Position numbers and translations under genes: made by a program. Below are positions 804 through 15,649 of a stretch of 15,649 nucleotides of DNA, piece by piece (position 1 is the stretch's first letter; each line of letters opens with the position of its first letter). Source of the stretch: a virus; the UHGV virus genome UHGV-0257549, one strand, 5' to 3'. Under the pieces are notes generated by a model. It made no database searches, was not told the DNA's origin, and worked only from the letters and a program-made list of their open reading frames with translations.

Positions 804-3361
804 CGTCCACCTCCGGAGAACAGACCACCATCACGCATCTGCCCGGTCACAACATCCATTGCCGCCTTACGGGCTACGTCATAAACAGCCTTCAGCGCCT
901 GTGGCCCTATCTGACCGTTCGTGCCGTCGTTGTTAATCACCACATGGTTATTCTGCTCAAACGTCCCGGACGCCTGCGACCGACTGTCCGCCATGCTGCC
1001 CGGTGTACCGACATAACCGCCGGTGGCATAGCCGCGCATCAGCCGGTAAAGATTCCCCACGCCAATCCGGCTGGTTGCCTCCTTCGTGAAGACAAATTCA
1101 CCACGGTGAACAATCCCCGCTGGCTCATATTTGCCGCCGGTTCCCGTAAATCCTCCGGTTGCAAAATGGAATTTCGCCGCAGCGGCCTGAATGGCTGTAC
1201 CGCCTGACGCGGATGCGCCGCCACCAACAGCCCCGCCAATGGCGCTGCCGATACTCCCGACAATCCCCACCATTGCCTGCTTAAGCAGAATTTCTGTCAT
1301 CATGGACAGCACGGAACGGGTGAAGCTGCGCCAGTTCTGCTCACTGCCGGTCAGCATCGCCGCCATATTCTGTGCAATACCATCAAAGGTCTGCGTGGCT
1401 GCACTTTTTACCTGCGACATACTGTCCGTGGCGCTCTCTTCCCACTCACTCCAGCCGGACTTCAGGCCTGCCATCCAGCTCCCGCGAAGCTGGTCTTCAG
1501 CCGCCCAGGTCTTTTTCTGCTCTGACATGACGTTATTCAGCGCCAGCGGATTATCGCCATACTGTTCCTTCAGGCGCTGTTCCGTGGCTTCCCGTTCTGC
1601 CTGCCGGTCAGTCAGCCCCCGGCTTTTCGCATCAATGGCGGCCCGTTTTGCCCGTTGCTGCTGTGCGAATTTATCCGCCTGCTGCGCCAGCGCGTTCAGG
1701 CGCTCCTGATACGTAACCTTGTCGCCAAGTGCAGCCAGCTGGCGTTTGTACTCCAGCGTCTCATCTTTATGCGCCAGCAGGGATTTCTCCTGTGCGGACA
1801 GCTGGCGACGTTGTGCCGCCTCCTCCAGTACCGCGAACTGACTTTCTGCCTTCCACAAATCCCGGCGCTGCTGGCTGATTTTCTCATCCGCTCCGGCATG
1901 CTTCTCCAGCGTCCGGAGTTCTGCCTGAAGCGTCAGCAGGGCAGCATGAGCACTGTCTTCCTGACGATCGCCCGCAGACACCTTCACGCCGGACTGTTTC
2001 GGCTTTTTCAGCGTCGCTTCATAATCCTTTTTCGCCGCCGCCATCAGCGTGTTGTAATCCGCCTGCAGGATTTTCCCGTCTTTCAGTGCCTTGTTCAGTT
2101 CTTCCTGACGGGCGGTATATTTCTCCAGCGGCGTCTGCAGCCGTTCGTAAGCCTTCTGCGCCTCTTCGGTATATTTCAGCCGTGACGCTTCGGTATCGCT
2201 CTGCTGCTGCGCATTTTTGTCCTGTTGAGTCTGCTGCTCAGCCTTCTTTCGGGCGGCTTCAAGCGCAAGACGGGCCTTTTCACGATCATCCCAGTAACGC
2301 GCCCGCGCTTCATCGTTAACAAAATAATCATCCTTGCGCAGATTCCAGATGTCGTCTGCTTTCTTAAACGCAGCCTCTGCCTTAATCAGCATCTCCTGCG
2401 CGGTATCAGGACGACCAATATCCAGCACCGCATCCCACATGGATTTGAATGCCCGTGCTGTCCTGTCTGCCCAGGTTTCCAGCGTGCCCATGTTCTCTTT
2501 CAAGCGTCGGGTCTGGTCATCAAACCCTTTCGTTGCGGCCTCGTTCGCCGCCTGCAATGCCCCGGCTTCATCGCCGGAACGCTGCAACTGAGCAACATAC
2601 GCAATCTGCTCCGCCGTCACGTTATGGAACTGGCGTGCCATCGCCGTCAGCCCCGACGTCGGGTCTGTGGTCAGCTTCCCGAAGGCTTCAGCGACCTTGT
2701 CCACCTCCACGCCGGATGCAGAGGAGAAACGCGCCACACTCTGGCTGATGGACGCAATCTGAGCCTCACCGCTTACCCCCGCCTTAACCAGTGCGCTGAG
2801 TGACTCGCTGGTCTGGTTAAACGTCAGCCCTGCCGCCTGCCCGGCTCTGGACAGGACCAGCATACGATCTGCCGTCAGTCCCGCCTGATTGCCGGAAAGG
2901 ACCAGCGTTTTGTTGAAATCGGACAGGGTTGAGTTGCCCTGATACCAGGCATACGCCAGCGCTCCGGTCGCCACCGCCAGCGAGGTAGCCCCCACCATCG
3001 GCAGGGTGATCGCACCGGCAAGCCCCCGGAACATGGGGATCATCCCGCCGAAGGAGTCCTTCACCTGACCCCCCTGTTGCAGCAGGATCAGCCACGGACT
3101 TTGCCCGCCTGCAAGCTGCGTGGCCACGTCAGTGAACTGCGCAGGCAGCATACGCATGGCGGCTTTATACTGCCCGACGGAAATTCCCGCTTTCTGTGCA
3201 GCCAGCGCCTGCCGGTTCATCGACTGTTCAACGACTGCCGCTGTTTTTTTCGCATCACTTTCCGTACCGGAAAAATGACGCCTGACTCTGGCCATCTGCT
3301 CGTCAAATCTGGCCGCATCCAGACTCAAATCAACGACCAGATCGCCTACCGGTTCAGCCAT
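800..3361 (-). CDS. H: Tail tape measure protein H (gpH), 853 aa
   Basis: ORF 800..3361 (-), 853 aa, the lambda gpH length. Long coiled-coil-like Ala/Gln/Glu/Lys/Arg-rich central region and Gly-rich hydrophobic C-terminal part typical of tape measure proteins. Sits between T/G and M. Confidence 0.95.
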   Translation of the reverse strand: MAEPVGDLVVDLSLDAARFDEQMARVRRHFSGTESDAKKTAAVVEQSMNRQALAAQKAGISVGQYKAAMRMLPAQFTDVATQLAGGQSPWLILLQQGGQVKDSFGGMIPMFRGLAGAITLPMVGATSLAVATGALAYAWYQGNSTLSDFNKTLVLSGNQAGLTADRMLVLSRAGQAAGLTFNQTSESLSALVKAGVSGEAQIASISQSVARFSSASGVEVDKVAEAFGKLTTDPTSGLTAMARQFHNVTAEQIAYVAQLQRSGDEAGALQAANEAATKGFDDQTRRLKENMGTLETWADRTARAFKSMWDAVLDIGRPDTAQEMLIKAEAAFKKADDIWNLRKDDYFVNDEARARYWDDREKARLALEAARKKAEQQTQQDKNAQQQSDTEASRLKYTEEAQKAYERLQTPLEKYTARQEELNKALKDGKILQADYNTLMAAAKKDYEATLKKPKQSGVKVSAGDRQEDSAHAALLTLQAELRTLEKHAGADEKISQQRRDLWKAESQFAVLEEAAQRRQLSAQEKSLLAHKDETLEYKRQLAALGDKVTYQERLNALAQQADKFAQQQRAKRAAIDAKSRGLTDRQAEREATEQRLKEQYGDNPLALNNVMSEQKKTWAAEDQLRGSWMAGLKSGWSEWEESATDSMSQVKSAATQTFDGIAQNMAAMLTGSEQNWRSFTRSVLSMMTEILLKQAMVGIVGSIGSAIGGAVGGGASASGGTAIQAAAAKFHFATGGFTGTGGKYEPAGIVHRGEFVFTKEATSRIGVGNLYRLMRGYATGGYVGTPGSMADSRSQASGTFEQNNHVVINNDGTNGQIGPQALKAVYDVARKAAMDVVTGQMRDGGLFSGGGR

Positions 3362-3788
3362 ACCGGACTCCTCCTGCGATCCCTTCTGATACTGTCATCA
3401 GCATTACGTCATCCTCCGTCATGTCCGCCACATCCGGGGAAGCGGGGATAACTTCATTCCCGTCCGGGCCAAAGCGGACGCCTCCGGCAAGCCCTGCCGC
3501 TTTCTGCATCAGCACATCATCTTCAGGCTCTTCGTCAGCCTCGCGCCGGTTCAGCAGACTGAAATCCAGCGGATGCATATCCGGATCGCTGAAAAACAGG
3601 CTGAGTACGGTGTACGTCAGCCCGGAAAAGTGCATATCCAGCAGAACATCATGAAAATAATGGGTACTGTAAAAGCGGTGCCAGTCGGCATACTCCGTGG
3701 ATGACATCCCGGCAAGCATGGCGCGCCAGTCGGGTCGCCCCATCTCACGCGCCAGTTTCAGGGCAAAACTCAGCTCACCGTCGAACAC
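3354..3788 (-). CDS. T: T-frame portion of the tail assembly chaperone gpGT, made by programmed -1 frameshift from G; no independent start expected
   Basis: Open frame 3354..3788 (-) in the -1 frame relative to G, entered at the slippery heptamer. Its stop overlaps H codons 2-3. The in-frame start in the ORF track is a GTG inside the slip site, not a real initiation site. Confidence 0.85.
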   Translation of the reverse strand: MFDGELSFALKLAREMGRPDWRAMLAGMSSTEYADWHRFYSTHYFHDVLLDMHFSGLTYTVLSLFFSDPDMHPLDFSLLNRREADEEPEDDVLMQKAAGLAGGVRFGPDGNEVIPASPDVADMTEDDVMLMTVSEGIAGGVRYG

Positions 3789-4192
3789 TTTCCCGCAGAA
3801 ACAGGCTCTGCTGGCCCGGCGTCATCTGCCTGTTCAGGTGCATCATTCACAACAAACTCAGACATACCGGACAGACGCATTACCACATTTTCAGCCTGAG
3901 CAATTGCCTCTGTGGGCCAGGTGGTAAGCACTTCCTGCTCAATTTGTTTAACGGCTTCATTCATGGACGGCATCTTTGTCTTCTGCGGATGGCTATGCCA
4001 CAGGGACATCGCCACCAGAAAAGCACCGGTTCTGACGAGATCTTCCACGCTCACCTGTCGATTGAGACTGGATCCCGCCTGTTCTGCCTGTCGTTTCAGC
4101 AGGGCGAGATGCTCAATTCGCTGCAGGGCTGACAGTTCAGAAAGCGTGACGCTCACACCGTTATATTCAAATGATTCGGTTTTCAGGAACAT
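3770..4192 (-). CDS. G: Tail assembly chaperone G (gpG), 140 aa
   Basis: ORF 3770..4192 (-), 140 aa, MFLKTESFEYNGVSVTLSEL; lambda gpG length and sequence from memory. Ends ...SAGKCSTVS, with the slip site near its 3' end. Confidence 0.93.
   Translation of the reverse strand: MFLKTESFEYNGVSVTLSELSALQRIEHLALLKRQAEQAGSSLNRQVSVEDLVRTGAFLVAMSLWHSHPQKTKMPSMNEAVKQIEQEVLTTWPTEAIAQAENVVMRLSGMSEFVVNDAPEQADDAGPAEPVSAGKCSTVS
3788..3794 (-). promoter_or_regulatory. Programmed -1 ribosomal frameshift slippery heptamer G GGA AAG (G to G-T)
   Basis: Minus-strand sequence GCG GGA AAG in the G zero frame at 3794..3788 (plus strand reads ctttccc). Classic X XXY YYZ motif located 6 codons before the G stop. 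Confidence 0.85.
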
Positions 4193-4207
4193 CGCTGACT
4201 CTCCGGA

Positions 4208-4948
4208 TTAACTGTCGGTGACGGTGATTTCTGCAACCACAGCAAGTTCACCATTACCGGATACAACCGGAATGTTGACCTTGCCTGCAGCAACACCTTT
4301 CACGGTGATGGTCATACCACTGACCGACACGGTGGCTTTTGTTTTATCCGCAGACACCGCACGGAAGCTCTTGTCGGTTGCGCCTTCCGGCTGGAATGCC
4401 ACGGTCAGCGTGGTGCTCTGCCCTTTCACCACCGAGGTGCTGGCAGGCGTCACGGTCATGCCGGTTGCCGCTGTGACCGTGCTGCGATCTTCTGCCATCG
4501 ACGGGCGTCCCACATTGGTGACCTTCACCGTGCGGGTGATCACTTCCTTCGCCGTCACCGCTTTACCGATACTGCTGACCCAGCCACGGAACACATCGAC
4601 CGTGCCGTTCGGGAAGCGGATTTTATAGGCACGGGTATCACCTTCATTAAACCACGCCAGCAGCGCCTGCTGCCCCTGCTCTCCGGGCATCCACGCCAGC
4701 GTGAAGCTGGTATCTCCGGCTGATTTCTGCCCCTGCCCGGTCGCAGTCCAGTCCGCATCTTCATCATCGAGATAGCTGTCGTCATAGGACTCAGCGGTCA
4801 GTTCGCCGGGCGTCAGGTCTTTAACTTTTGCCAGACGCGACCAGTCAACGTCTGAAAGCGGATTCGCATAAGGGTCACCGCTCCCCTTATAAACCCACAG
4901 GGTGGTCCCGGCACCTTTCACCGGCATTACAGGATTTGGTACAGGCAT
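4208..4948 (-). CDS. V: Major tail tube protein V (gpV), 246 aa, with C-terminal Ig-like domain
   Basis: ORF track gives 4208..4978; I place the start at the ATG at 4946-4948 ([16 protein letters not shown]), which has GAGGA about 7 nt upstream. The upstream ATG lies inside the end of U. 246 aa matches lambda gpV. The C-terminal Thr/Val/Ser-rich segment is typical of a Big_2-like domain. Confidence 0.9.
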
Positions 4949-4955
4949 AGCGTCC

Positions 4956-5351
4956 TCACATTTCATAGGTAATGACATAAGTCAGATCGGCTGAACTCCA
5001 CAGGCCCGCATCATCGTCGCGTCGGTAGTCATAGCCACTGGCCACCATACTGGTGATCAACTCTGACAGTGCCGGGATATCGCTCATCACCGGATAAATC
5101 CGGGACTCCATCCACGCATCCAGCTCTGAATCCGGCACCTGAGCAGGCAGGAAAACTTCGATATGCAGCTCCGCCTGCCAGGTATCGCTGTCCAGCTCTT
5201 CGCCCGTGTATTCAGCGCCGGTGAGATAAACGGCAACTGCCGGAAAATCCGCCTCATCAAAAACAGCGGGGCGACCATCAAAAAACGTCGCCCCGGTGTC
5301 ATGCTTCTCCAGTGCATCCAGTACGGCTGCACGGAGTTCAGTATGTTTCAT
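4956..5351 (-). CDS. U: Tail terminator protein U (gpU), 131 aa
   Basis: ORF 4956..5351 (-), 131 aa, [17 protein letters not shown]; length and sequence match lambda gpU from memory. Start overlaps the Z stop (ATGA). Confidence 0.93.
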
Positions 5352-5926
5352 CGCTTTATTACCATCCTCAGTTGATGCTGCAGCGCATAGCCCAGCTCTT
5401 TCGGAAGACGTTCACGCCGTATCCGCTCAATATTTTGTTTAAACGCCGTGGTCAGCGGCACCGCCATCGGGATTTTCACCACATCAATGGGGTAACGGTT
5501 TTTCCTGGCCACACGCTGCATGACATGCCACCGGCCATTTTTCAGTTGCTGAATAAACGCGCCGGGAATACGACGGTTTCCCACCACAAGCACGCTGCCG
5601 CCACCTTTCAGGGATGAACGCTGCCCCTTTTTACGACGTCTGCGGCGGGAAAGGACAACCCGCGCGTTACCCAGCTTGATTACGGGCAAATCCCCCCGGT
5701 TAACCCTGATTCTGGCCTGCGGATTTTTGACCGTGGCCCTTTTCAGCCTGGCCCTTTCCTTTACCAGTTTCCGGCGTACCTTTGTCTCACGGGCAACCTG
5801 TGACGCAGACTGCGATATCGCGGATGACGCAACGCGGTTAATGGCCATTGCGGCGGCACCAGGCACCGCCGTTTTGCTGATACGGCTGAGGTTTTCAACG
5901 GCCTGCTCAAGACCTTTTATGGCCAT
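5348..5926 (-). CDS. Z: Tail completion protein Z (gpZ), 192 aa
   Basis: ORF 5348..5926 (-), 192 aa, MAIKGLEQAVENLSRISK, with a basic RRRRRKKGQR patch; matches lambda gpZ length and sequence from memory. Confidence 0.93.
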   Translation of the reverse strand: MAIKGLEQAVENLSRISKTAVPGAAAMAINRVASSAISQSASQVARETKVRRKLVKERARLKRATVKNPQARIRVNRGDLPVIKLGNARVVLSRRRRRKKGQRSSLKGGGSVLVVGNRRIPGAFIQQLKNGRWHVMQRVARKNRYPIDVVKIPMAVPLTTAFKQNIERIRRERLPKELGYALQHQLRMVIKR

Positions 5927-5937
5927 ACATCCCCCTT

Positions 5938-6291
5938 TCAGCGGCGACGGTTAACGGCAGGCGGCACGCCACGCCCAAGCCAGAGATGACAGCTTCCGCC
6001 ATCATCCGGCGAAATCCGGTCCACCCAGAAGTTTTCCTCGCCGATGGTCAGTGTGTCTCCACGCCGCAGCTGCCGCACATCATCAGTCCGGACAAACAGG
6101 GACGGGCTGGAGCCTTCAACGCGCACCCCCTGTCCGGCATAGCTGATATTTTCAGGGTCATCAAAAACACCACGTATCACAGCACCGGACAGCTCACCGG
6201 ATGTCATGGTGGCTGACGTTCCCATGTACCCGCGTATCGTTTCATCGGCGCGGGCAATGGCAGCATCGAACAGGTTATCGGAATCAGCCAC
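5938..6291 (-). CDS. FII: Head-tail connector/head completion protein FII (gpFII), 117 aa
   Basis: ORF 5938..6291 (-), 117 aa, MADSDNLFDAAIARADETIRGYMG; matches lambda gpFII from memory. Confidence 0.93.
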   Translation of the reverse strand: MADSDNLFDAAIARADETIRGYMGTSATMTSGELSGAVIRGVFDDPENISYAGQGVRVEGSSPSLFVRTDDVRQLRRGDTLTIGEENFWVDRISPDDGGSCHLWLGRGVPPAVNRRR

Positions 6292-6302
6292 AGCGCCTCC
6301 CG

Positions 6303-6698
6303 TTATTGCATTCTGGCCAGGCCATGTTCTGTCATTTCGGCTGCCACACCGGCAGAGACACGAAACGCCGTTCCCGGCAGCACAAATGCCACAGCCTCAT
6401 CCCGCGTGGCGTGAAGTGCATCAGTATGCAGCGTCACCAGTGCCACAACCGTGACCAGATCAGCCGTATCAGTCACGGTATCCGGCTGCGCTGATACAAC
6501 CTCATTTTCACGTCCGGTCAGCGCATTTTCCGGGCTGACAGATGTGTCCTGACCAGCAGCGTCATCCGTGTCATCAAGCTCCTCTTCCAGCTCTGCCACA
6601 CGGAGTGCCAGTTCTTCTTTCGTCCCCGTCAGGCTGACATCACGGTTCAGTTGCTCACCCAGCACCTGAAGACGGGCAATCAGTTCATCTTTCGTCAT
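6303..6698 (-). CDS. FI: DNA packaging/head assembly protein FI (gpFI), 131 aa
   Basis: Start chosen at the ATG at 6696-6698 (MTKDELIARLQVLGEQ), preceded by GTGGAGGAG as ribosome binding site. The longer 144-aa ORF begins inside the upstream hairpin and is rejected. About one codon shorter than the lambda gpFI length I remember (132 aa). Confidence 0.88.
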   Translation of the reverse strand: MTKDELIARLQVLGEQLNRDVSLTGTKEELALRVAELEEELDDTDDAAGQDTSVSPENALTGRENEVVSAQPDTVTDTADLVTVVALVTLHTDALHATRDEAVAFVLPGTAFRVSAGVAAEMTEHGLARMQ

Positions 6699-6719
6699 GG
6701 ACTCCTCCACAGAGAGAAA

Positions 6720-6737
6720 ATGGCCCCGAAGGGCCAT
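6720..6737 (-). terminator. Stem-loop immediately after the E stop codon (7-bp stem, 4-nt loop) followed by a T-rich run on the coding strand
   Basis: Perfect palindrome atggccc-cgaa-gggccat at 6720..6737. The minus-strand downstream sequence is TTTTCTCTCTG. It lies in the 41-nt E-FI intergenic gap. Confidence 0.5.
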
Positions 6738-6739
6738 GA

Positions 6740-7765
6740 TTACGCCAGTTGTACGGACACGAACGCATCAGGGTCAGCCAGCAGCATCAGCGGTGCTGAC
6801 TGAATCATGGTGAACTCACGCGCCGGATCGCCGGTGGTCACCCAGTTTTTCGGGTAGCGGGCAGAGGCGTTAATACCTTCGCGCTGTGCGTCCGCATCCT
6901 GAATGCAGCCATAGGTGCGCAGACCGCGTGCCTGAGTGTTCCCCAGCACCATCGTGTTGTCCGGCAGGAAGTTCTTTTTGACGTCGTTTTCCACGTACTG
7001 TCCGGAATACACGACGATCGCCGTATCGCCATACATCCCCTTATAGGACACCGCTTCGCCCAGGTCTTTTACCGCTGTCTCCAGCTCGGAATTAGAGCCG
7101 CGACGGGTATCCAGCTTCTCCTTGACGGCTTTGAAGGAACGGAACAGCGCCCAGCCTTTCGGATCAAACACGATGATATTCACCACACCGCTGGCGTTCA
7201 GCGCGTAGGCTTCGATATCGTCGGTCGGGTCATACGTGGACTTGTCACGCTTGCTCCACTCCGTACCGCCGGACTGCGTGATGTTGTTCGCCACACTGCG
7301 GCCCATATCCACTTCAACCGGATCGAAGGCTTCACCGGTCATGGTATATTTGCCCTTAAGCACGGCAGAAACGGCCTGCATCTCTTCGACCTGAGCAATG
7401 GCCAGCTCTTCGTCTCGCATGTTCTGCAGGATGATGCGACGGCGGCGGTAAGCCGGGTCCGCCAGATTCTGTGGATCTTCATCCGGCAGGCGACGCAGGG
7501 TCATCTGCGGATTCACCTCATGCTTCGGCTTGACATATCCCGGTGTAAATTCAGAGGTGGAGCCGCCACGGGAGCGGATAACCTCACCGGAAACAATCGG
7601 CGAAACGTACAGCGCCATGTTTACCAGTCCCGGAATTTGTGAGAGATAGACTTTCTCCGTGGTGAAGGGATAGCTCTCACGGAAAAAGAGACGCAGAAAC
7701 AGCGGATCAAACTTAAATTTCTTCTCATTTGCCGCCAGCAGCTGGGCGGTTGTGTACATCGACAT
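6740..7765 (-). CDS. E: Major capsid protein E (gpE), 341 aa
   Basis: Start placed at the ATG at 7763-7765 (MSMYTTAQLLAANEKKFKF), giving 341 aa, the lambda gpE length. The 9-codon upstream extension in the ORF track runs into the D-E hairpin. Sequence is near-identical to lambda gpE from memory. Confidence 0.93.
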   Translation of the reverse strand: MSMYTTAQLLAANEKKFKFDPLFLRLFFRESYPFTTEKVYLSQIPGLVNMALYVSPIVSGEVIRSRGGSTSEFTPGYVKPKHEVNPQMTLRRLPDEDPQNLADPAYRRRRIILQNMRDEELAIAQVEEMQAVSAVLKGKYTMTGEAFDPVEVDMGRSVANNITQSGGTEWSKRDKSTYDPTDDIEAYALNASGVVNIIVFDPKGWALFRSFKAVKEKLDTRRGSNSELETAVKDLGEAVSYKGMYGDTAIVVYSGQYVENDVKKNFLPDNTMVLGNTQARGLRTYGCIQDADAQREGINASARYPKNWVTTGDPAREFTMIQSAPLMLLADPDAFVSVQLA

Positions 7766-7778
7766 AAAAAAATCCCGT

Positions 7779-7800
7779 AAAAAAAGCCGCACAGGCGGCC
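7779..7800 (-). terminator. GC stem-loop plus U-tract between D and E (rho-independent terminator-like attenuator)
   Basis: Minus strand reads GGCCGCCTGTGCGGC followed by TTTTTTT (plus strand 7781..7799 aaaaagccgcacaggcggc). Lies between the D stop and the E start. Confidence 0.55.
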
Positions 7801-7820
7801 TTTAGTGATGAAGGGTAAGG

Positions 7821-8153
7821 TTAAACGATGCTGATTGCCGTTCCGGCAAACGCGGTCCGCTTTTTCGTCTCGTCGCTGGCAGCCTCCGGCCAGAGCACAT
7901 CCTCATAACGGAACGTGCCGGACTTGTAGAACGTCAGCGTGGTGCTGGTCTGGTCAGCAGCAACCGCCAGAATGCCAACGGCAGCACCGTCGGTGGTGCC
8001 ATCCCACACAACCAGCTTACGGGTGGAGGTGTCCAGCATCAGCGGGGTCATTGCAGGCGCTTTCGCACTCAATCCGCCGGGCGCGGTTGCCGTATGTGCC
8101 GGGTCACTGTTGCCCAGCGGCTGGTAATGGGTAAAGGTTTCTTTGCTCGTCAT
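7821..8153 (-). CDS. D: Head decoration protein D (gpD), 110 aa
   Basis: Start at the ATG at 8151-8153 ([20 protein letters not shown]) gives 110 aa as in lambda gpD. The ORF track's 112-aa version starts 2 codons upstream. Confidence 0.92.
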
Positions 8154-8162
8154 AAACATCCC

Positions 8163-8768
8163 TTACACTGGTGTGTTCAGCAAATCGTTAACGGCATCAG
8201 ATGCCGGGTTACCTGCAGCCAGCGGTGCCGGTGCCCCCTGCATCAGACGATCCAGCGCAGTGTCACTGCGCGCCTGTGCACTCTGTGGTGCAGCTGCCAG
8301 AATGCGGCGGGCCGTTTCCACGGTCATACCGGGGGTTTCGGCCAGCACGCGTGCCTGTTCTTCGCGTCCGTGAGCCTCCTCACAGTTGAGGATCCCCATA
8401 ATGCGACTGTTTTCTGCCGCAACCGCTGCGGTGATCTGCGCGTTCACGTCCGGCTGCGCCGCGCTGGCGTTCTCGCCCTCCGTCGCTTGCACCACGCCAG
8501 TAACGTCAGCCTGCGAAGCAGTGGCTGAAACAGTTGTTGATTGAGTCTCTTTGGTCATTCGCCCTCCTGAGAGACGGGATTTACGTGCATCCAGTGCATC
8601 ACGCATGACGGTGATCGCATCGGTACTGTTAACAAGTTCATCAGCCAGTCCGGCATCAATGGCCTCCTGACCGCTGTACACTGCAGCCTCGGTATCCAGC
8701 ACAGCCTGCACGGACAGGCCGGTATATGCCGACACCTTCTGTGCAAACATCCGGCGGGTTGCATCCAT
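8163..8768 (-). CDS. Nu3: Scaffolding protein Nu3, in-frame internal start within C, 201 aa
   Basis: In-frame ATG at 8766-8768 (MDATRRMFAQKVSAYTGL) shares the C stop codon. This is the known nested C/Nu3 arrangement in lambda. Assignment rests on homology and position, not on a strong ribosome binding site. Confidence 0.7.
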   Translation of the reverse strand: MDATRRMFAQKVSAYTGLSVQAVLDTEAAVYSGQEAIDAGLADELVNSTDAITVMRDALDARKSRLSGGRMTKETQSTTVSATASQADVTGVVQATEGENASAAQPDVNAQITAAVAAENSRIMGILNCEEAHGREEQARVLAETPGMTVETARRILAAAPQSAQARSDTALDRLMQGAPAPLAAGNPASDAVNDLLNTPV

Positions 8769-9482
8769 CCGGGACTGCAGTGTTTCCCGGACATCATCCG
8801 GTAGATGGCTGTAGGGGTTGCCATCCACCTTATGGCTGCCGCTGTAAATCAGCGTGATTTCCACGCCCTGTTTCTCCAGCGCAGCACCGTAATTACTGTG
8901 AGCCATCATGACGCCGATGGAGCCTGTCCGGGCGGTCTGCGTGACCAGACGTCGGGAGGCGGCGCTGGCAAGCAACTGACCTGCACTGCAGTTCATGTCG
9001 TTGGCCAGCGCCCATACCGGCTTTATGTCACGCACACGGGCGATGATGTCAGCGCAGTCAAATGCCCCTGCCACCATCCCGCCTGGCGTATCCATATCGA
9101 GCAGAATGCCGTCCACCATCGGGTCGCTGGCAGCCTGTTGCAGACGGGCGATAATGCCGTTGTAACCGGTCATCCCCGAATACGGCTGCAGCGCTCGCGT
9201 CCGACTGACCAGCGTGCCGGACACCGGCAGCACGGCGATGCCGTTCATGACCTGATAACTGCGGGCCTGTCGTGGTCCGTCATCATCAACGGATAACGCC
9301 AGCGCCGCGGGTGCCTCTCCGGCAGTCAGGCTGTCGCCGGATACCGCATCCGTCAGGCGGCTGATCCCAAGCTGGCCTGCAAGCGCACAAAAGAAAACCC
9401 GCGCATAGGCGGGTTCAAGCATCAGCGGCTCATTAAAGGCCATACTGGCAATATGCGGGAGATTACGCAGCTCTGCTGTCAC
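8163..9482 (-). CDS. C: Capsid assembly protease / prohead protease C (gpC), 439 aa, GTG start
   Basis: The track ORF (484 aa) extends upstream into B. A GTG at 9480-9482 preceded by GGAGGAG gives VTAELRNLPHIASMAF and 439 aa, the lambda gpC length. ClpP/S49-like protease region present. Overlaps the B 3' end by 20 nt. Confidence 0.88.
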   Translation of the reverse strand: MTAELRNLPHIASMAFNEPLMLEPAYARVFFCALAGQLGISRLTDAVSGDSLTAGEAPAALALSVDDDGPRQARSYQVMNGIAVLPVSGTLVSRTRALQPYSGMTGYNGIIARLQQAASDPMVDGILLDMDTPGGMVAGAFDCADIIARVRDIKPVWALANDMNCSAGQLLASAASRRLVTQTARTGSIGVMMAHSNYGAALEKQGVEITLIYSGSHKVDGNPYSHLPDDVRETLQSRMDATRRMFAQKVSAYTGLSVQAVLDTEAAVYSGQEAIDAGLADELVNSTDAITVMRDALDARKSRLSGGRMTKETQSTTVSATASQADVTGVVQATEGENASAAQPDVNAQITAAVAAENSRIMGILNCEEAHGREEQARVLAETPGMTVETARRILAAAPQSAQARSDTALDRLMQGAPAPLAAGNPASDAVNDLLNTPV

Positions 9483-10746
9483 TCTTCTCCTCCTCTGTTG
9501 ATTGTCGCAGCCCGGATTCAAATGCCGCAGCCGCCCAGGCGGGCGGTTTAAGACCGGCTGCACGGCGCTCCATCGTTTCACGGACCTGCTGGGCAAAAAT
9601 TTCCTGATAGTCGTCACCGCGTTTTGCGCACTCTTTCTCGTAGGTACTCAGTCCGGCTTCTATCAGCATCACCGCTTCCTGTACTTCTTTCAGACCATCG
9701 ATGGCCATACGACCGGAGCCTATCCAGTCGCAGTTCCCCCAGGCACTTCGGGCTTCCTGAAAACTGAAGCGCGCTTTTGAAGGTAACGTCACCACGCGGC
9801 GAACGATGGCCTCTTCCAGCCAGCACAGAAACATCTGGCTCGCCTGACGGGATGCGACGAATTTTCGCCGCCCCATAAAGTACGCCCACGACTCGTTCGC
9901 ACTGGCCCGTGCCGTGGAGTAGCTCATCTGGGCGTAATTCCGGGAAAGCTGCTCATACGAGACACCCAGCCCGGCAGCGATATACCGCAGCAGTGACTGC
10001 TCAAACACGGAGTAGCCGTTATCCGTATCCTGAGCCGTCTGCAGGTTCAGTGAGTCACCCGGCATCAGGTGCGGTACTTTTGCGCCTCCCAGCCGGACCG
10101 GCGCTGCGGCGTAATACGCGGCAATTTCACCAATCCAGCCGGTCAGCCTTTCCCGCTGCTCCTGACTGTTCGCGCCCAGAATAAAATCCATCGCTGACTG
10201 CGTATCCAGCTCACTCTCAATGGTGGCGGCATACATCGCCTTCACAATGGCGCTCTGCAGCTGCGTGTTCTGCAGCGTGTCGAGCATCTTCATCTGCTCC
10301 ATCACGCTGTAAAACACATTTGCACCGCGGGTCTGCCCGTCCTCCACGGGTTCAAAAACGTGAATGAACGAGGCGCGCCCGCCGGGTAACTCACGGGGTA
10401 TCCATGTCCATTTCTGCGGCATCCAGCCAGGATAGCCGTCCTCGCTGACGTAATATCCCAGCGACGCACCGCTGTCATTAATCTGCACACCGGCACGGCA
10501 GTTCCGGCTGTCGCCGGTATTGTTCGGGTTGCTGATGCGCTTCGGGCTGACCATCCGGAACTGTGTCCGGAAAAGCCGCGACGAACTGGTATCCCAGGTG
10601 GCCTGAACGAACAGTTCACCGTTAAAGGCGTGCATGGCCACACCTTCCCGAATCATCATGGTAAACGTGCGTTTTCGCTCAACGTCAATGCAGCAGCAGT
10701 CATCCTCGGCAAACTCTTTCCATGCCGCTTCAACCTCGCGGGAAAA
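9463..10746 (-). CDS. B: Portal protein gpB-derived segment of the fusion ORF (lacks its own N-terminal ~106 codons and start codon)
   Basis: C-terminal 427 aa of the fusion ORF match lambda gpB residues ~107-533 from memory. No W gene and no B initiation region are present upstream. Confidence 0.85.
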   Translation of the reverse strand, partial: FSREVEAAWKEFAEDDCCCIDVERKRTFTMMIREGVAMHAFNGELFVQATWDTSSSRLFRTQFRMVSPKRISNPNNTGDSRNCRAGVQINDSGASLGYYVSEDGYPGWMPQKWTWIPRELPGGRASFIHVFEPVEDGQTRGANVFYSVMEQMKMLDTLQNTQLQSAIVKAMYAATIESELDTQSAMDFILGANSQEQRERLTGWIGEIAAYYAAAPVRLGGAKVPHLMPGDSLNLQTAQDTDNGYSVFEQSLLRYIAAGLGVSYEQLSRNYAQMSYSTARASANESWAYFMGRRKFVASRQASQMFLCWLEEAIVRRVVTLPSKARFSFQEARSAWGNCDWIGSGRMAIDGLKEVQEAVMLIEAGLSTYEKECAKRGDDYQEIFAQQVRETMERRAAGLKPPAWAAAAFESGLRQSTEEEKSDSRAA

Positions 10747-12651
10747 GGCACGGGCGTAATCTGCCAGTGTTTTCTTGTTGGTTGCTGCACCATCCTCTTC
10801 CTGCAGGCTCGCCAGCAGTGCACTGAGATCCAGCTGCCAGCGGGAAATACTGATGCGCAGCGCCGCCAGCGCATAAACGAAGCAGTCGAGCGCCTCATTG
10901 CGTCGCTTTTTGCTGTCCCACAGTATTTTTTTCCTGCCATCCACCCATTTTTCGACCTGCTCTTCAGCAGTCAGCTGCTGCGCTTCGGTCAGATCAAAAA
11001 TATCCGGGTTATTCGGGAAGTGAACGGCACCGGGAAGCGGTTCATCCCCTTCCGGCGTCAGTGTGAAGCGGTTATAAATCTGCTCTTTCGCGGTATCCGT
11101 ACCGATTTCGGTAAGGTAAACCCCGTTTTTGTTTCGCTTACGAGGCATGCTGGCCACCGGCTTACCGTAGACGGATGCCCCTTTAATGGGGATCACCCGG
11201 AACAGCCCATGCTTTTTCGAGCGTTCATACACAATGGTCGGGTCAATCCCGCCAATATCCCAGCAGATACGGGATATCGACATTTCTGCACCATTCCGGC
11301 GGGTATAGGTTTTATTGATGGCCTCATCCACACGCAGCAGCGTCTGTTCATCGTCGTGGCGGCCCATAATAATCTGCCGGTCAATCAGCCAGCTTTCCTC
11401 ACCCGGCCCCCATCCCCATACGCGCATTTCGTAGCGATCCAGCTGGGAGTCGATACCGGCGGTCAGGTAAGTCACACGGTCAGGAACGGGCGCTGAATAA
11501 TGCTCTTTCCGCTCTGCCATCACTTCAGCATCCGGACGTTCGCCAATTTTCGCCTCCCACGTCTCACCGAGCGTGGTGTTTACGAAGGTTTTACGTTTTC
11601 CCGTATCCCCTTTCGTTTTCATCCAGTCTTTGACAATCTGCACCCAGGTGGTGAACGGGCTGTACGCCGTCCAGATGTGAAAGGTCACGCTGTCAGGCGG
11701 TTCAATCTCTTCACCGGATGACGAAAACCAGAGAATGCCATCACGGGTCCAGATCCCGGTCTTTTCGCAGATATAACGGGCATCAGTAAAGTCCAGCTCC
11801 TGCTGGCGGATGACGCAGGCATTATGCTCGCAGAGATAAAACACGCTGGAGGGGTCATCCGGCGTCCATTTGAGGCCAAACGGCGTCTCTTTGTCGCCAA
11901 ATTTAAGATACTGCTCCTCCCCGCAGTGCGGGCAGGCAACATGAAAACGCATAAAATGCGGGGATTCACTGGCTGCACGCTCAATCTGGCAGGTGCCTCT
12001 CACTTTGGGCGTGGAGCCACGGATGGACTTTGGCCAGACCGAGCCTTCAATACGTTTGTCGCCAAGGAACGTCGGAGAGCCTTCCTGTTCAATATCCTCA
12101 TCAAAGGCAGCAAGTTCATCATAACCCGCCACATCCACCGACTTTTCACGGTAGTTTTTTGCCGCTTTACCGCCCTGGCACCAGAAGCCACGACCATTGG
12201 AAAAACGCTTCATAGTGAGCGTGTTATCCCGGTGCTTTTTGCCATACCACGGAGCCAGCGCCAGCAGCGACGGAATATCGCGGATGGTCGGCTCAACGTG
12301 GGTTTTCATAAAGTTCTCGGCATCACCATCCGTCGGCAACCAGATAAGTGTGTTGCGCTGCTTATGCTCTATAAAGTAGGCATAAACACCCAGCAGCATT
12401 TTGGAATAACCGACACGGGCAGACTTCACCACATTCACCTCACGGATGTAGTCGCTGCCCATCGCATTCATGATGGCCCGCTGAAAGGGCAGTGTTTCCC
12501 AGCGCCCTTCCTGGTATGCGGATTCTTTCGGGAGATAGTAATTAGCATCCGCCCATTCAACGGCGGTCTGTGGCTCCGGCCTGAACAGTGAGCGAAGCCC
12601 GGCGCGGACAAAATGCCGCAGCCTGTTAACCTGACTGTTCGATATATTCAC
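9463..12651 (-). CDS. A: Fused terminase large subunit (gpA, residues ~1-635) and portal protein (gpB, from residue ~107) in one 1062-aa reading frame; gene W absent
   Basis: Single uninterrupted ORF 9463..12651 (-). The N-terminal ~635 aa are terminase large subunit (MNISNSQVNRLRHFVRAG..., Walker A-like KSARVGYSK). Sequence after ...KKTLADYARA continues directly as portal (FSREVEAAWKEFAEDDCCC... to acidic tail EEEKSDSRAA). The start overlaps Nu1 by 26 nt and the end overlaps C by 20 nt, as in lambda. Confidence 0.9.
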   Translation of the reverse strand: MNISNSQVNRLRHFVRAGLRSLFRPEPQTAVEWADANYYLPKESAYQEGRWETLPFQRAIMNAMGSDYIREVNVVKSARVGYSKMLLGVYAYFIEHKQRNTLIWLPTDGDAENFMKTHVEPTIRDIPSLLALAPWYGKKHRDNTLTMKRFSNGRGFWCQGGKAAKNYREKSVDVAGYDELAAFDEDIEQEGSPTFLGDKRIEGSVWPKSIRGSTPKVRGTCQIERAASESPHFMRFHVACPHCGEEQYLKFGDKETPFGLKWTPDDPSSVFYLCEHNACVIRQQELDFTDARYICEKTGIWTRDGILWFSSSGEEIEPPDSVTFHIWTAYSPFTTWVQIVKDWMKTKGDTGKRKTFVNTTLGETWEAKIGERPDAEVMAERKEHYSAPVPDRVTYLTAGIDSQLDRYEMRVWGWGPGEESWLIDRQIIMGRHDDEQTLLRVDEAINKTYTRRNGAEMSISRICWDIGGIDPTIVYERSKKHGLFRVIPIKGASVYGKPVASMPRKRNKNGVYLTEIGTDTAKEQIYNRFTLTPEGDEPLPGAVHFPNNPDIFDLTEAQQLTAEEQVEKWVDGRKKILWDSKKRRNEALDCFVYALAALRISISRWQLDLSALLASLQEEDGAATNKKTLADYARAFSREVEAAWKEFAEDDCCCIDVERKRTFTMMIREGVAMHAFNGELFVQATWDTSSSRLFRTQFRMVSPKRISNPNNTGDSRNCRAGVQINDSGASLGYYVSEDGYPGWMPQKWTWIPRELPGGRASFIHVFEPVEDGQTRGANVFYSVMEQMKMLDTLQNTQLQSAIVKAMYAATIESELDTQSAMDFILGANSQEQRERLTGWIGEIAAYYAAAPVRLGGAKVPHLMPGDSLNLQTAQDTDNGYSVFEQSLLRYIAAGLGVSYEQLSRNYAQMSYSTARASANESWAYFMGRRKFVASRQASQMFLCWLEEAIVRRVVTLPSKARFSFQEARSAWGNCDWIGSGRMAIDGLKEVQEAVMLIEAGLSTYEKECAKRGDDYQEIFAQQVRETMERRAAGLKPPAWAAAAFESGLRQSTEEEKSDSRAA

Positions 12652-13171
12652 TCAGCAACCCCGGTATCAGTTCATCCAGCGCGGCTGCTTTGTTCATGGC
12701 TTTGATGATATCCCGTTTCAGGAAATCAACATGTCGGTTTTCCAGTTCCGGAAAACGCCGCTGCACCGACAGGGGGATCCCGTCGAGAATACTGGCAATT
12801 TCACCTGCGATCCGCGACAGCACGAAAGTACAGAATGCGGTTTCCACCACTTCAGCGGAGTCTCTGGCATTTTTCAGCTCCTGTGCGTCGGCCTGCGCAC
12901 GCGTAAGTCGATGGCGTTCGTACTCAATAGTCCCTGGCTGGAGATCTGTCTCGCTGGCCTGCCGCAGTTCTTCAACTTCCCGGCGCAGCTTTTCGTTCTC
13001 AATTTCAGCATCCCTTTCGGCATACCATTTTATGACGGCGGCAGAATCATAAAGCACCTCATTACCCTTCCCACCACCCCGCAGAACGGGCATTCCCTGC
13101 TCCTGCCAGTTCTGAATGGTACGGATACTCGCGCCGAAAATGTCAGCCAGCTGCTTTTTGTTGACTTCCAT
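12626..13171 (-). CDS. Nu1: Terminase small subunit Nu1 (gpNu1), 181 aa
   Basis: ORF 12626..13171 (-), 181 aa, MEVNKKQLADIFGASIRTIQNWQEQGMPVLRGGGKGNEV (winged helix-turn-helix at the N-terminus). Lies immediately adjacent to cosB. Confidence 0.95.
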   Translation of the reverse strand: MEVNKKQLADIFGASIRTIQNWQEQGMPVLRGGGKGNEVLYDSAAVIKWYAERDAEIENEKLRREVEELRQASETDLQPGTIEYERHRLTRAQADAQELKNARDSAEVVETAFCTFVLSRIAGEIASILDGIPLSVQRRFPELENRHVDFLKRDIIKAMNKAAALDELIPGLLSEYIEQSG

Positions 13172-13196
13172 TGTTCATTCCACGGACAAAAACAGA

Positions 13197-13312
13197 GAAA
13201 GGAAACGACAGAGGCCAAAAAGCCCGTTTTCAGCACCTGTCGTTTCCTTTCTTTTCAGGGGGTGTTTTAAATAAAAACATTAAGTTATGACGAAGAAGAA
13301 CGGAAACGCCTT
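13197..13312. repeat. cosB: three gpNu1-binding R elements (core GGAAACG / CGTTTCC) with intervening IHF-site region
   Basis: R1-like ggaaacgacag at 13201..13211, R2-like inverted ctgtcgtttcc at 13238..13248, R3-like cggaaacgcc at 13301..13310. Spacing and orientation match the lambda cosB layout. Confidence 0.75.
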
Positions 13313-13348
13313 AAACCGGAAAATTTTCATAAATAGCGAAAACCCGAG

Positions 13349-13360
13349 AGATCGCCGCCC
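13349..13360. other. cosN cohesive-end sequence (joined form); 12-nt overhang region
   Basis: Plus strand agatcgccgccc is the reverse complement of GGGCGGCGATCT. This equals the lambda cohesive end GGGCGGCGACCT except for one base, by my recollection. Flanked by right-end sequence ...cgtaacctgtcggatc. Confidence 0.75.
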
Positions 13361-13395
13361 CGTAACCTGTCGGATCGCCGGAAAGGACCCGCAAA

Positions 13396-13412
13396 ATGAT
13401 AATAATTATCAT
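13396..13412. repeat. Perfect 17-bp palindrome atgataat-a-attatcat near the cosQ side of cos
   Basis: 8-bp inverted repeat with 1-nt spacer, read directly from the sequence. Function unknown (possible protein-binding site). Confidence 0.5.
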
Positions 13413-13559
13413 CTACATGTCACAACGTGCATCTACGCCATCAAACCACGTCAAATAATCAATTATGACGCAGGTATCGTATTAATTGATCTGCATCAAC
13501 TTAACGTAAAAACAACTTCAGACAATACAAATCAGCGACACTGAATACGGGGCAACCTC

Positions 13560-13754
13560 ATGTCAACGAAGAACAGAACCCGCAGAACAACAACCCGCAA
13601 CATCCGCTTTCCTAACCAAATGATTGAACAAATTAACATCGCTCTTGAGCAAAAAGGGTCCGGGAATTTCTCAGCCTGGGTCATTGAAGCCTGCCGTCGG
13701 AGACTAACGTCAGAAAAGAGAGCATATACATCAATTAAAAGTGATGAAGAATGA
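13560..13754 (+). CDS. Small basic protein, 64 aa, YlcI/DUF3950-like with predicted ribbon-helix-helix DNA-binding fold
   Basis: ORF with ATG at 13560 preceded by GGGG about 8 nt upstream. Arg/Thr-rich N-terminal arm, then IRFPNQMIEQINIALEQKG..FSAWVIEACRRRL, a typical beta-strand/helix/helix RHH pattern. The equivalent position in E. coli cryptic prophages holds a similar small gene (ylcI), from memory. Confidence 0.6.
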   Translation: MSTKNRTRRTTTRNIRFPNQMIEQINIALEQKGSGNFSAWVIEACRRRLTSEKRAYTSIKSDEE

Positions 13755-13854
13755 ACATCCCGCGTTCTTCCCTCCGAACAGGACGATATTGTAAATTCAC
13801 TTAATTACGAGGGCATTGCAGTAATTGAGTTGCAGTTTTACCACTTTCCTGACA

Positions 13855-13882
13855 GTGACAGACTGCGTGTTGGCTCTGTCAC
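13855..13882. terminator. Hairpin between the convergent YlcI-like ORF and the lambdap79-like ORF (8-bp stem gtgacaga / tctgtcac, 12-nt loop)
   Basis: Inverted repeat read directly. Located between two convergent stop codons. No clean U-tract, so terminator function is uncertain. Confidence 0.3.
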
Positions 13883-13918
13883 AGGCTAAATAGTTTGAAT
13901 GATTAGCAGTTATGGTGA

Positions 13919-14125
13919 TCAGTCAACCACCAGGGAATAATCCTTCATATTATTATCGTGCTTCACCAACGCTGCCTCAATTGCTCTGAATGCTTCCAGA
14001 GACACCTTATGTTCTATACATGCAATTACAACATCAGGGTAACTCATAGAAATGGTGCTATTAAGCATATTTTTTACACGAATCAGATCCACGGAGGGAT
14101 CATCAGCAGATTGTTCTTTATTCAT
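13919..14125 (-). CDS. Hypothetical protein, 68 aa (lambdap79 / YbcW-like)
   Basis: ORF 13919..14125 (-), [27 protein letters not shown]. Same size and position as the 68-aa right-end ORF of lambda. AT-rich codon usage, unlike the structural genes. Confidence 0.7.
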
Positions 14126-14287
14126 TTTGTCGCTCCATGCGCTTGCTCTTCATCTAGCGGTTAAAATATTACTTCAAATCTTTCTGTATGAAGATTTGAG
14201 CACGTTGGCCTTACATACATCTGTCGGTTGTATTTCCCTCCAGAATGCCAGCAGGACCGTACTTTGTTACGCAACCAATACTATTAA

Positions 14288-14821
14288 GTGAAAACATTCC
14301 TAATATTTGACATAAATCATCAACAAAACACAAAGAGGTCAGACCAGATTGAAACGATAAAAACGATAATGCAAACTACGCGCCCTCGTATCACATGGAA
14401 GGTTTTACCAATGGCTCAGGTTGCCATTTTTAAAGAAATATTCGATCAAGTGCGAAAAGATTTAAACTGTGAATTGTTTTATTCTGAACTAAAACGTCAC
14501 AACGTCTCACATTATATTTACTATCTAGCCACAGATAATATTCACATCGTGTTAGAAAACGATAACACCGTGTTAATAAAAGGACTTAAAAAGGTTGTAA
14601 ATGTTAAATTCTCAAGAAACACGCATCTTATAGAAACGTCCTATGATAGGTTGAAATCAAGAGAAATCACATTTCAGCAATACAGGGAAAATCTTGCTAA
14701 AGCAGGAGTTTTCCGATGGGTTACAAATATCCATGAACATAAAAGATATTACTATACCTTTGATAATTCATTACTATTTACTGAGAGCATTCAGAACACT
14801 ACACAAATCTTTCCACGCTAA
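14288..14821 (+). CDS. Hypothetical protein, 177 aa (lambdap78 / YbcV-YdfO-like, annotated in lambda as putative envelope protein)
   Basis: ORF 14288..14821 (+). Size and position match lambdap78. The true start is uncertain: an alternative TTG at about 14349 lies 9 nt after AAGAGG. AT-rich. Confidence 0.7.
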
Positions 14822-15111
14822 ATCATAACGTCCGGTTTCTTCCGTGTCAGCACCGGGGCGTTGGCATAATGCAATACGTGTACGCGCTAAACCCTGTGTG
14901 TATCGTTTTTAATTATTCCCGGACACTCCCGCAGAGAAGTTCCCCGTCAGGGCTGTGGACATAGTTAATCCGGGAATACAATGACGATTCATCGCACCTG
15001 ACATACATTAATAAATATTAACAATATGAAATTTCAACTCATTGTTTAGGGTTTGTTTAATTTTCTACACATACGATTCTGCGAACTTCAAAAAGCATCG
15101 GGAATAACACC

Positions 15112-15405
15112 ATGAAAAAAATGCTACTCGCTACTGCGCTGGCCCTGCTTATTACAGGATGTGCTCAACAGACGTTTACTGTTCAAAACAAACCGGCAGC
15201 AGTAGCACCAAAGGAAACCATCACCCATCATTTCTTCGTTTCTGGAATTGGGCAGAAGAAAACTGTCGATGCAGCCAAAATTTGTGGCGGCGCAGAAAAT
15301 GTTGTTAAAACAGAAACCCAGCAAACATTCGTAAATGGATTGCTCGGTTTTATTACTTTAGGCATTTATACTCCGCTGGAAGCGCGTGTGTATTGCTCAC
15401 AATAA
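15112..15405 (+). CDS. bor: Bor outer-membrane lipoprotein (serum resistance, lysogenic conversion), 97 aa
   Basis: MKKMLLATALALLITGCAQQ: signal peptide with lipobox LITG-C. Sequence matches lambda Bor from memory. ATG at 15112 is preceded by an AGGGAATAACACC region. Confidence 0.92.
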   Translation: MKKMLLATALALLITGCAQQTFTVQNKPAAVAPKETITHHFFVSGIGQKKTVDAAKICGGAENVVKTETQQTFVNGLLGFITLGIYTPLEARVYCSQ

Positions 15406-15415
15406 TTGCATGAGT

Positions 15416-15433
15416 TGCCCATCGATATGGGCA
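15416..15433. terminator. Hairpin between the convergent bor and Rz stop codons (7-bp stem tgcccat / atgggca, 4-nt loop cgat)
   Basis: Perfect inverted repeat read directly. Sits in the 31-nt gap between the bor stop (15403-15405) and the Rz stop (15437-15439). Confidence 0.4.
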
Positions 15434-15436
15434 GCT

Positions 15437-15649
15437 CTATCTGCACTGCTCATTAATATACTTCTGGGTTCCTTCCAGTTGTTTTTGCATAGTGATCAGC
15501 CTCTCTCTGAGGGTGAAATAATCCCGTTCAGCGGTGTCTGCCAGTCGGGGGGAGGCTGCATTATCCACGCCGGAGGCGGTGGTGGCTTCACGCACTGACT
15601 GACAGACTGCTTTGATGTGCAACCGACGACGACCAGCGGCAACATCATC
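15437..15649 (-). CDS. Rz: Spanin inner-membrane subunit Rz, C-terminal part; the 5' end lies beyond the window end
   Basis: Minus-strand frame open to the window edge, ending ...HIKAVCQSVREATTASGVDNAASPRLADTAERDYFTLRERLITMQKQLEGTQKYINEQCR; matches the lambda Rz C-terminus from memory. Confidence 0.85.
   Translation of the reverse strand, partial: DDVAAGRRRLHIKAVCQSVREATTASGVDNAASPRLADTAERDYFTLRERLITMQKQLEGTQKYINEQCR
15495..15649 (-). CDS. Rz1: Spanin outer-membrane lipoprotein Rz1, embedded in the +1 frame of Rz; N-terminus truncated by the window edge
   Basis: Manual translation of the minus strand gives MMLPLVVVGCTSKQSVSQCVKPPPPPAWIMQPPPDWQTPLNGIISPSERG with stop at 15495-15497. Lipobox VVG-C and proline-rich stretch are typical of Rz1. 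Absent from the ORF track, probably on length. Confidence 0.8.

Follow-up and report, generated by a model that had tools for sequence, protein, structure and literature searches.

What is carried by the AT-rich stretch that lies between the cohesive-end site (cos) and the lysis gene Rz of a lambda-type prophage: cargo for the lysogen, late genes of the phage, or DNA that serves only in cis? The question is raised by positions 13400-15440 of UHGV virus genome UHGV-0257549, a viral DNA of 15,649 nucleotides (nt; "the window" denotes this whole stretch). A sequence-only reading had described these positions as an accessory (moron) block with bor and two hypothetical genes. The block, which runs from cos to the Rz stop codon (15437-15439), is very probably an accessory region between the lysis cassette and cos, made up of host-regulated small transcription units that are expressed in the lysogen. 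The observation itself is confirmed and the moron interpretation is supported, with errors of detail only. The region is not new, being the classical accessory (moron) region that lambda carries between Rz and cos, and a standard example of its kind.

Composition, identity and modular assortment

The guanine-plus-cytosine (GC) content from cosN to the Rz stop (13362-15436) is 0.399, compared with 0.571 for the structural part (1-13171). Among 444 sliding windows of 2075 bp across the structural part the minimum is 0.539 (standard deviation 0.014), and the block lies about 12 standard deviations below the mean. Composition is therefore not uniform, and the AT-rich character claimed from the letters holds up in the sliding-window check. 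GC returns to 0.535 in the Rz part (15437-15649), and GC at third codon positions is 0.31-0.43 in the four block genes versus 0.57-0.68 in Nu1, H and E.

The window contains a lambda-type prophage in reverse orientation, with the head and tail genes Nu1 to H on the minus strand (800-13171) and only the 3' part of Rz entering at the right edge. Positions 13100-15649 match lambda at 99.3% DNA identity (bases 46215-48502, continuing into the left end). The right cohesive end, lambda base 48502, aligns with position 13361, and the left arm continues from 13360. The right end of lambda (bases 46427-48502) reads Rz, bor (lambdap77), lambdap78, lambdap79, an unnamed open reading frame (ORF) of 64 amino acids (aa), and cos. 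Gene set, order and orientation are all shared with the window, and the Bor, 64-aa and 68-aa proteins are identical. The differences amount to about 15 substitutions, a 1-nt insertion or deletion in the T-run of a non-coding element (element E, Table 1), and a single changed residue (D to N) in the product of lambdap78, a DUF1398 protein.

Two cryptic prophages of E. coli K-12 carry the same DNA, one of them (Qin) only in part. DLP12 matches this stretch at 98.6% over 2474 nt without gaps, with a gene order (rzpD-borD-ybcV-ybcW-ylcI-nohD) corresponding to that of the block, and shows no difference from the window in the Fur, PdhR and PhoP boxes or in element E. DLP12 is, however, a decayed prophage whose structural genes are gone, whereas the window keeps a nearly complete head and tail gene set; the DLP12 copy is the source of most experimental data on regulation. 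In Qin (nohA-ynfO-ydfO-gnsB...), identity to the window is 95.8% for the cos-proximal DNA, which includes the Fur box and the DUF3950 gene (the 64-aa ORF), and 84.5% for the DUF1398 gene. Qin differs in that ybcW and bor are absent, gnsB, ynfN and cspI come next, and the DUF3950 (77 aa) and DUF1398 genes stand in tandem and are co-oriented.

The sequence-only reading had placed bor, the 68-aa gene and a 177-aa ORF (14288-14821) correctly but overlooked the 64-aa gene, so that the block holds four genes instead of three. Nor do these alternate strictly in orientation, as had been described; they run + - + + between Nu1 (-) and Rz (-). The hairpins said to separate the genes are indeed found, at bor/Rz, after the DUF1398 gene and, in weaker form, at 13855-13882 and at 14174-14199. 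The block sits inside the 27-kb late mRNA of lambda, and three of its four genes are antisense to that transcript, the 68-aa gene alone being sense. Since these three oppose late transcription, they would need promoters of their own.

Modular behavior is clear from 132 related loci, which fall into 13 arrangement classes in which bor, DUF1398, YbcW (the 68-aa gene) and DUF3950 each occur with and without the others. Element E alone, DUF3950 alone, DUF3950 plus DUF1398, bor alone and all four genes together are seen, as is YbcW without DUF3950 and DUF1398. The order is nevertheless constant, Nu1(-), DUF3950(+), [YbcW(-)], DUF1398(+), element E, Bor(+), Rz, and the block always lies between Nu1/terminase and Rz. 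In a phage collection, bor and its upstream DNA are shared at 98% with Stx phages of the 933W type; phages 2851 and BP-4795, which differ in their packaging module, share the DUF3950 gene at ~83%. Phage Turner has lambda-like head genes but carries DUF3950 only, together with a different bor allele.

Both deviant composition and variable presence at a module boundary, two marks of a moron, are thus found here. Hints of separate promoters are a PhoP box with a -10-like hexamer before bor and a PdhR box between divergent genes; hints of separate terminators are a T-run hairpin after the DUF1398 gene, a strong hairpin between bor and Rz (without a U-run) and a modest one between the 64-aa and 68-aa genes. 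As far as the account of Juhala et al. 2000 cited in PMC7067206 goes, the morons of HK97 and HK022 are transcription units of deviant composition between modules, variable in presence and expressed in the lysogen. The block shows no essential difference from them and is, together with lom, a textbook example. Besides deviant GC and independent assortment in related phages, survival in cryptic prophages and the published expression of the DLP12 copies (borD, ybcV and ybcW) in uninduced K-12 speak for the moron reading.

The same data bear on the idea that low GC reflects cis-acting needs of cos-proximal DNA or of the late mRNA, with the ORFs being incidental. The location of the block, within the late transcript and adjoining cos, would fit, as would a spurious 85-aa ORF across cos and the non-coding nature of element E. 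Against this, the four ORFs have family models, codon-position bias and conserved length, one of them has a solved structure, and BorD protein has been detected in K-12 (PMC5740661). Most of the block is missing from many lambdoid phages that have the same cos and Nu1; the block is hence not required in cis. We consider this explanation scarcely credible.

Table 1. Coordinates of the features of the block and its borders in the window
Feature	Position	Strand	Basis
cosN (cohesive-end site)	13349-13361	.	alignment to lambda; right end of lambda map = window 13361
cosQ-like heptamer GGGTCCT (late strand)	13383-13389	-	read from sequence
Perfect 7-1-7 Fur box TGATAATaATTATCA	13397-13411	.	zero mismatches to consensus TGATAATnATTATCA
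DUF3950 / YlcI-YnfO family gene, 64 aa	13560-13754	+ (antisense to late)	PF13132, NF041551, phrog_949
Hairpin between convergent 64-aa and 68-aa genes	13855-13882	.	folding energy
68-aa gene, lambdap79 / YbcW, orphan family	13919-14125	- (late-transcript strand)	phrog_657
Divergent regulatory region, PdhR box AAGAGGTCAGACCAGAT (14333-14349) and hairpin (14174-14199)	14126-14410	.	exact match
DUF1398 gene, 136 aa, lambdap78 / YbcV	14411-14821	+ (antisense to late)	PF07166, PDB 2HH8
Non-coding junction element E, ~170 nt	14845-14996	.	conserved across loci
Terminator-like hairpin with T-run after DUF1398 gene	14880-14910	+	hairpin scan
bor promoter (predicted): PhoP box TGTTTAgggttTGTTTA (15043-15059), 12 nt, -10-like TACGAT (15072-15077)	15043-15077	+	
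bor, 97-aa outer-membrane lipoprotein	15112-15405	+ (antisense to late)	PF06291, phrog_260
11-bp hairpin between convergent stops of bor and Rz	15412-15437	.	folding energy
Rz 3' part, Rz1 inside, end of lysis cassette	15437-15649	-	lambda annotation transferred

Host regulator sites in the block

The best understood gene of the block is bor. Its identification as a lipoprotein gene with lipobox LITGC was correct: the product matches PF06291 (E = 2e-30, 105 bits, cut-off 25), carries a lipoprotein signal with the lipobox cysteine (MKKMLLATALALLITG|C), and shows 100% identity to lambda Bor and 91% to a protein annotated as Iss. Variable sites relative to related copies number 12, 3 and 22 at codon positions 1, 2 and 3, and none of the copies has a stop. 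Bor is an outer-membrane lipoprotein tied to serum resistance, and bor is listed among the lambda genes expressed in the lysogen (PMC7067206). The PhoP box upstream has zero mismatches (0.09 matches expected by chance). A single direct-orientation (T/G)GTTTA-N5-(T/G)GTTTA box placed 12 nt upstream of the -10 hexamer defines "architecture I" of PhoP-activated promoters (PMC3335776), and the bor promoter layout fits this definition. An identical box is located at -69 of DLP12 borD, and the box is common also to bor of the 933W type. In K-12, PhoQ/PhoP induces borD (the DLP12 copy) at both mRNA and protein level, and the gene is in the PhoP regulon (PMC5740661). Other lambdoid prophages and ColV plasmids have Iss and Bor alleles of this lipoprotein family (91% protein identity); however, alleles of the Iss/Turner type have another upstream region from which the PhoP box is absent, so their regulation probably differs from that of bor in the window. 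The hairpin between bor and Rz has a folding energy of -20.6 kcal/mol (z -3.6) on the plus strand and -16.9 kcal/mol (z -2.4) on the minus strand.

Between the divergent 68-aa and DUF1398 genes lies an exact match to the PdhR box, with zero expected by chance. The same site is bound by PdhR in DLP12 in systematic evolution of ligands by exponential enrichment (SELEX), and ybcV and ybcW mRNA is ~10-fold down in a pdhR mutant (PMC7660256). Both genes are >1000-fold up when the T4 protein MotB perturbs H-NS repression (PMC7827196).

A third site, a perfect Fur box (chance expectation 0.03 matches even with 2 mismatches allowed), is found at a distance of 7 nt from the cosQ-like heptamer. Of the 31 related loci that carry the DUF3950 gene, 30 have a perfect box in which the central base alone varies, and in most loci lacking this gene the box is degenerate or absent; a single locus has the DUF3950 module without the box. 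The sequence is present in DLP12 and Qin as well. In K-12, the sites upstream of nohA and nohB rank with the strongest Fur sites predicted; that of nohA (Qin) bound Fur in a gel shift and also emerged from an in-vivo selection (PMC2189734). Overlapping the box is a leftward promoter-like site (13423->13396) directed into cos/nu1.

Taken together with the published data, these sites suggest how the block may work. Four small units (the bor, DUF1398, 68-aa and DUF3950 genes) would have been acquired independently inside the long late operon, with promoters apparently wired to host regulons: PhoPQ for bor, and PdhR together with H-NS-type silencing for the YbcV/YbcW pair, while a putative Fur site adjoins cos and the DUF3950 gene. 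The genes would then be made in the uninduced lysogen on host-type signals such as low Mg2+ or osmotic upshift, carbon status and perhaps iron, and would not be needed for lytic growth. Bor, as a PhoP-activated outer-membrane lipoprotein, would raise the serum resistance of the lysogen. By analogy, the copy in the window probably behaves like that of DLP12, and the three small genes may well be conversion functions. Their context and the DLP12 literature suggest that their general role is most likely a lysogen-expressed, host-regulated accessory function.

The three small genes and rival explanations

The longest ORF of the DUF1398 gene comprises 177 aa from a GTG at 14288 to 14821 on the plus strand, and this mechanically longest frame, which the sequence-only reading adopted, is over-extended. 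The PF07166 match (E = 3e-46, 157 bits, cut-off 22) covers only residues 49-167 of the 177-aa frame, and the solved relative YdfO (PDB: 2HH8) aligns from Met42 over 136 residues (E = 4e-71). Both ybcV and ydfO of K-12 have 411 nt. The supposed N-terminal extension (14288-14410) contains the PdhR operator and shares homology, at 14332-14405, with the 3' end of ynfO in Qin-type prophages. Given the domain span, the start of 2HH8, the K-12 gene lengths, and the operator and ynfO homology in the extension, the gene most likely encodes 136 aa from the ATG at 14411, and the extension is probably not coding. A GGAAGG motif stands 8 nt upstream of this ATG. Variable sites number 18, 12 and 39 at codon positions 1, 2 and 3, with zero stops. 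No signal peptide and no membrane segment are found in the protein sequence, and for this reason nothing visible supports the labels "putative envelope protein" and "head protein"; the latter comes from PHROGs and RefSeq, and the sole solved member of the family is a hypothetical protein from structural genomics.

The homology check proposed for the two hypothetical ORFs left the 68-aa ORF an orphan, with no match in Pfam, NCBIfam, PADLOC or PDB searches. It keeps its exact length in copies at 81-88% DNA identity, with residues 16-57 nearly invariant and third-position changes in excess. The YbcW family is very small, forming only ~199 clusters at 50% identity, mostly variants due to read errors. 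Homology to the 3' end of ynfO in the extension upstream of DUF1398, together with the tandem pair in Qin, suggests that the arrangement of lambda and DLP12 arose when a YbcW segment was inserted into, and split, an ancestral DUF3950-DUF1398 tandem.

We also noticed that protein searches were swamped by thousands of frameshifted or otherwise erroneous copies of this lambda segment on ENA contigs of ~3.5 kb, partly labelled Staphylococcus aureus, Veillonella or a plant. These are probably sequencing-control lambda DNA, namely the nanopore lambda control amplicon. With such copies dominating, the search for YbcW homologues in large protein collections gave no useful alignment.

The 64-aa protein matches PF13132 (E = 2e-20, 72.8 bits, cut-off 25) and NF041551 (E = 2e-9, 37.6 bits, cut-off 30), and is 100% identical to the lambda ORF, which is annotated in some lambda records and corresponds to ylcI in DLP12. 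The first 50 residues are conserved in the DUF3950 family. An AlphaFold 2 model (predicted local distance difference test, pLDDT, 71) shows an extended N-terminal segment, with a basic N-terminus, followed by two helices. The hairpin between this gene and the convergent 68-aa gene folds at -14.8 kcal/mol on the plus strand and -17.6 kcal/mol on the minus strand (z -2.0), and ybcW-ylcI is listed as a convergent excludon in K-12 RNA sequencing (PMC12288877).

Could some or all of the small genes instead be ordinary late lytic functions, with, for example, the 68-aa or the DUF1398 protein serving in the virion or in its assembly? The 68-aa gene does run in the direction of the late transcript, and CRISPR interference (CRISPRi) against lambdap79 lowers plating ~10^4-fold; however, the authors ascribe this to a roadblock on the late mRNA, and the gene was non-essential in earlier genetics (PMC10695390). 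Knock-downs of bor and lambdap78 in the same study left the efficiency of plating near 1, both genes being dispensable for plaques (PMC10695390), and the PHROGs/RefSeq label on the DUF1398 family, which would also favor a late function, is the one found above to lack visible support. In addition, the genes are missing from close relatives with the same head genes, such as phage Turner, yet cryptic prophages that produce no virions retain and transcribe them. A late lytic role is thus very unlikely.

Another explanation is that DUF3950 and DUF1398 form a toxin-antitoxin or anti-phage cassette, with a small DNA-binding regulator or antitoxin followed by an effector, which was split by the 68-aa gene in lambda and DLP12. 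The tandem of Qin has this order, but DUF3950 stands alone in at least 41 loci, DUF1398 occurs without DUF3950 in one (L133), and a PADLOC search with the five ORFs gave no match to a defence protein (best E = 0.017). We regard such a cassette as unlikely. Somewhat less doubtful, though still rather improbable, is a wider proposal in which DUF3950, YbcW and DUF1398 would be a conversion cassette for stress tolerance or phage exclusion wired to Fur, PdhR and H-NS, and element E would be the boundary element of a universal moron slot between the lysis and packaging modules.

Several observations weigh against the preferred reading of the block as a host-regulated accessory region, the empty PADLOC search being one of them. 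From these searches a function can be assigned to only one of the four genes (bor). The predicted model of the DUF1398 protein is too poor for use, and the 64-aa protein resembles the ribbon-helix-helix type, with all profile and fold comparisons non-significant. The promoter prediction that had been proposed located the PhoP and PdhR boxes, but a generic sigma-70 scan of the block showed no enrichment (6 sites versus 4.8 expected), and on inspection no clear promoter was seen for the DUF3950 gene. The Fur box could serve either the leftward cos/nu1 promoter or the 64-aa gene. Lying on the late strand, the 68-aa gene may owe its expression mainly to the late transcript, and the bor/Rz hairpin has no clear U-run on either strand. 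Finally, identity to lambda and DLP12, composition, modular presence and absence, coding signatures and regulator sites are read directly from the DNA; expression and regulation are taken from the literature on lambda and on the 98.6%-identical DLP12 copies.

Element E, the borders of the block and significance

Element E, between the DUF1398 gene and bor, combines two parts. Its 5' half resembles an intrinsic terminator on the plus (anti-late) strand (14880-14910), and its 3' half contains a 10-bp inverted repeat (14914-14923 and 14969-14978) that can fold into a hairpin of -27.3 kcal/mol (z -3.3; 14914-14978). The element is conserved at 74-98% identity in lambdoid prophages, including L004:2914-3085, L005:2442-2613 and >120 other loci. 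Of 5426 complete E. coli genomes, 4141 (76%) carry it (median copy number 2, maximum 11), yet none has it annotated. Irrespective of the terminase type, its position is invariably between the lysis cassette and the packaging genes, with the anti-late genes on its 5' side and bor on its 3' side. If it does act as a boundary, it could do so as an anti-late terminator, as an insulator or through structure in the late mRNA.

None of the frames stays open throughout the copies of the element, which show local +1/-1 shifts, and Rfam scans, run on the block and on a Sakai-type copy of the element, gave matches at chance level only. A conserved RNA was considered and is not supported: RNAalifold gave -8.6 kcal/mol on the plus strand and -22.5 kcal/mol on the late-sense strand, with weak covariation terms (-0.2 and -0.9), and an apparent compensatory change in the 10-bp inverted repeat of the window is a single case that is unmatched in other copies.

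At the left border, the 12-nt cohesive end is one base off that of lambda (AGATCGCCGCCC versus AGGTCGCCGCCC; on the late strand, GGGCGGCGATCT versus GGGCGGCGACCT). The heptamer at 13383-13389 is a putative cosQ. The 85-aa ORF across cosN (13287-13544, matching phrog_9395) was rejected as a gene, since it lacks codon-position bias (variable sites of 18, 13 and 15 at the three positions) and has stops in 5 of 28 copies; it is a spurious gene call propagated in databases.

Outside the block, the window is without 538 bp that are present in lambda (about lambda 2634-3144), with the junction at window ~10729-10755. This deletion takes out W together with the beginning of the portal gene B, and joins terminase A in frame to B, giving an ORF of 1062 aa (9463-12651, minus strand); the prophage should for this reason be defective for virion production. 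An identical junction is present in E. coli STEC388, and the other matching genomes, among the matches listed, are undeleted. The right end of STEC388 (ylcI-iss) differs from that of the window.

As a textbook region has been re-identified, little new knowledge follows for the region as such. The value lies in part in annotation: the 177-aa model of lambdap78 is too long, the "head" and "envelope" labels of DUF1398 are unsupported, and the reference lambda record lacks the 64-aa gene. The block also illustrates how prophage accessory genes are placed under host regulators, here PhoP, PdhR, Fur and H-NS-type silencing, and a very large share of E. coli genomes harbor its three uncharacterised genes.

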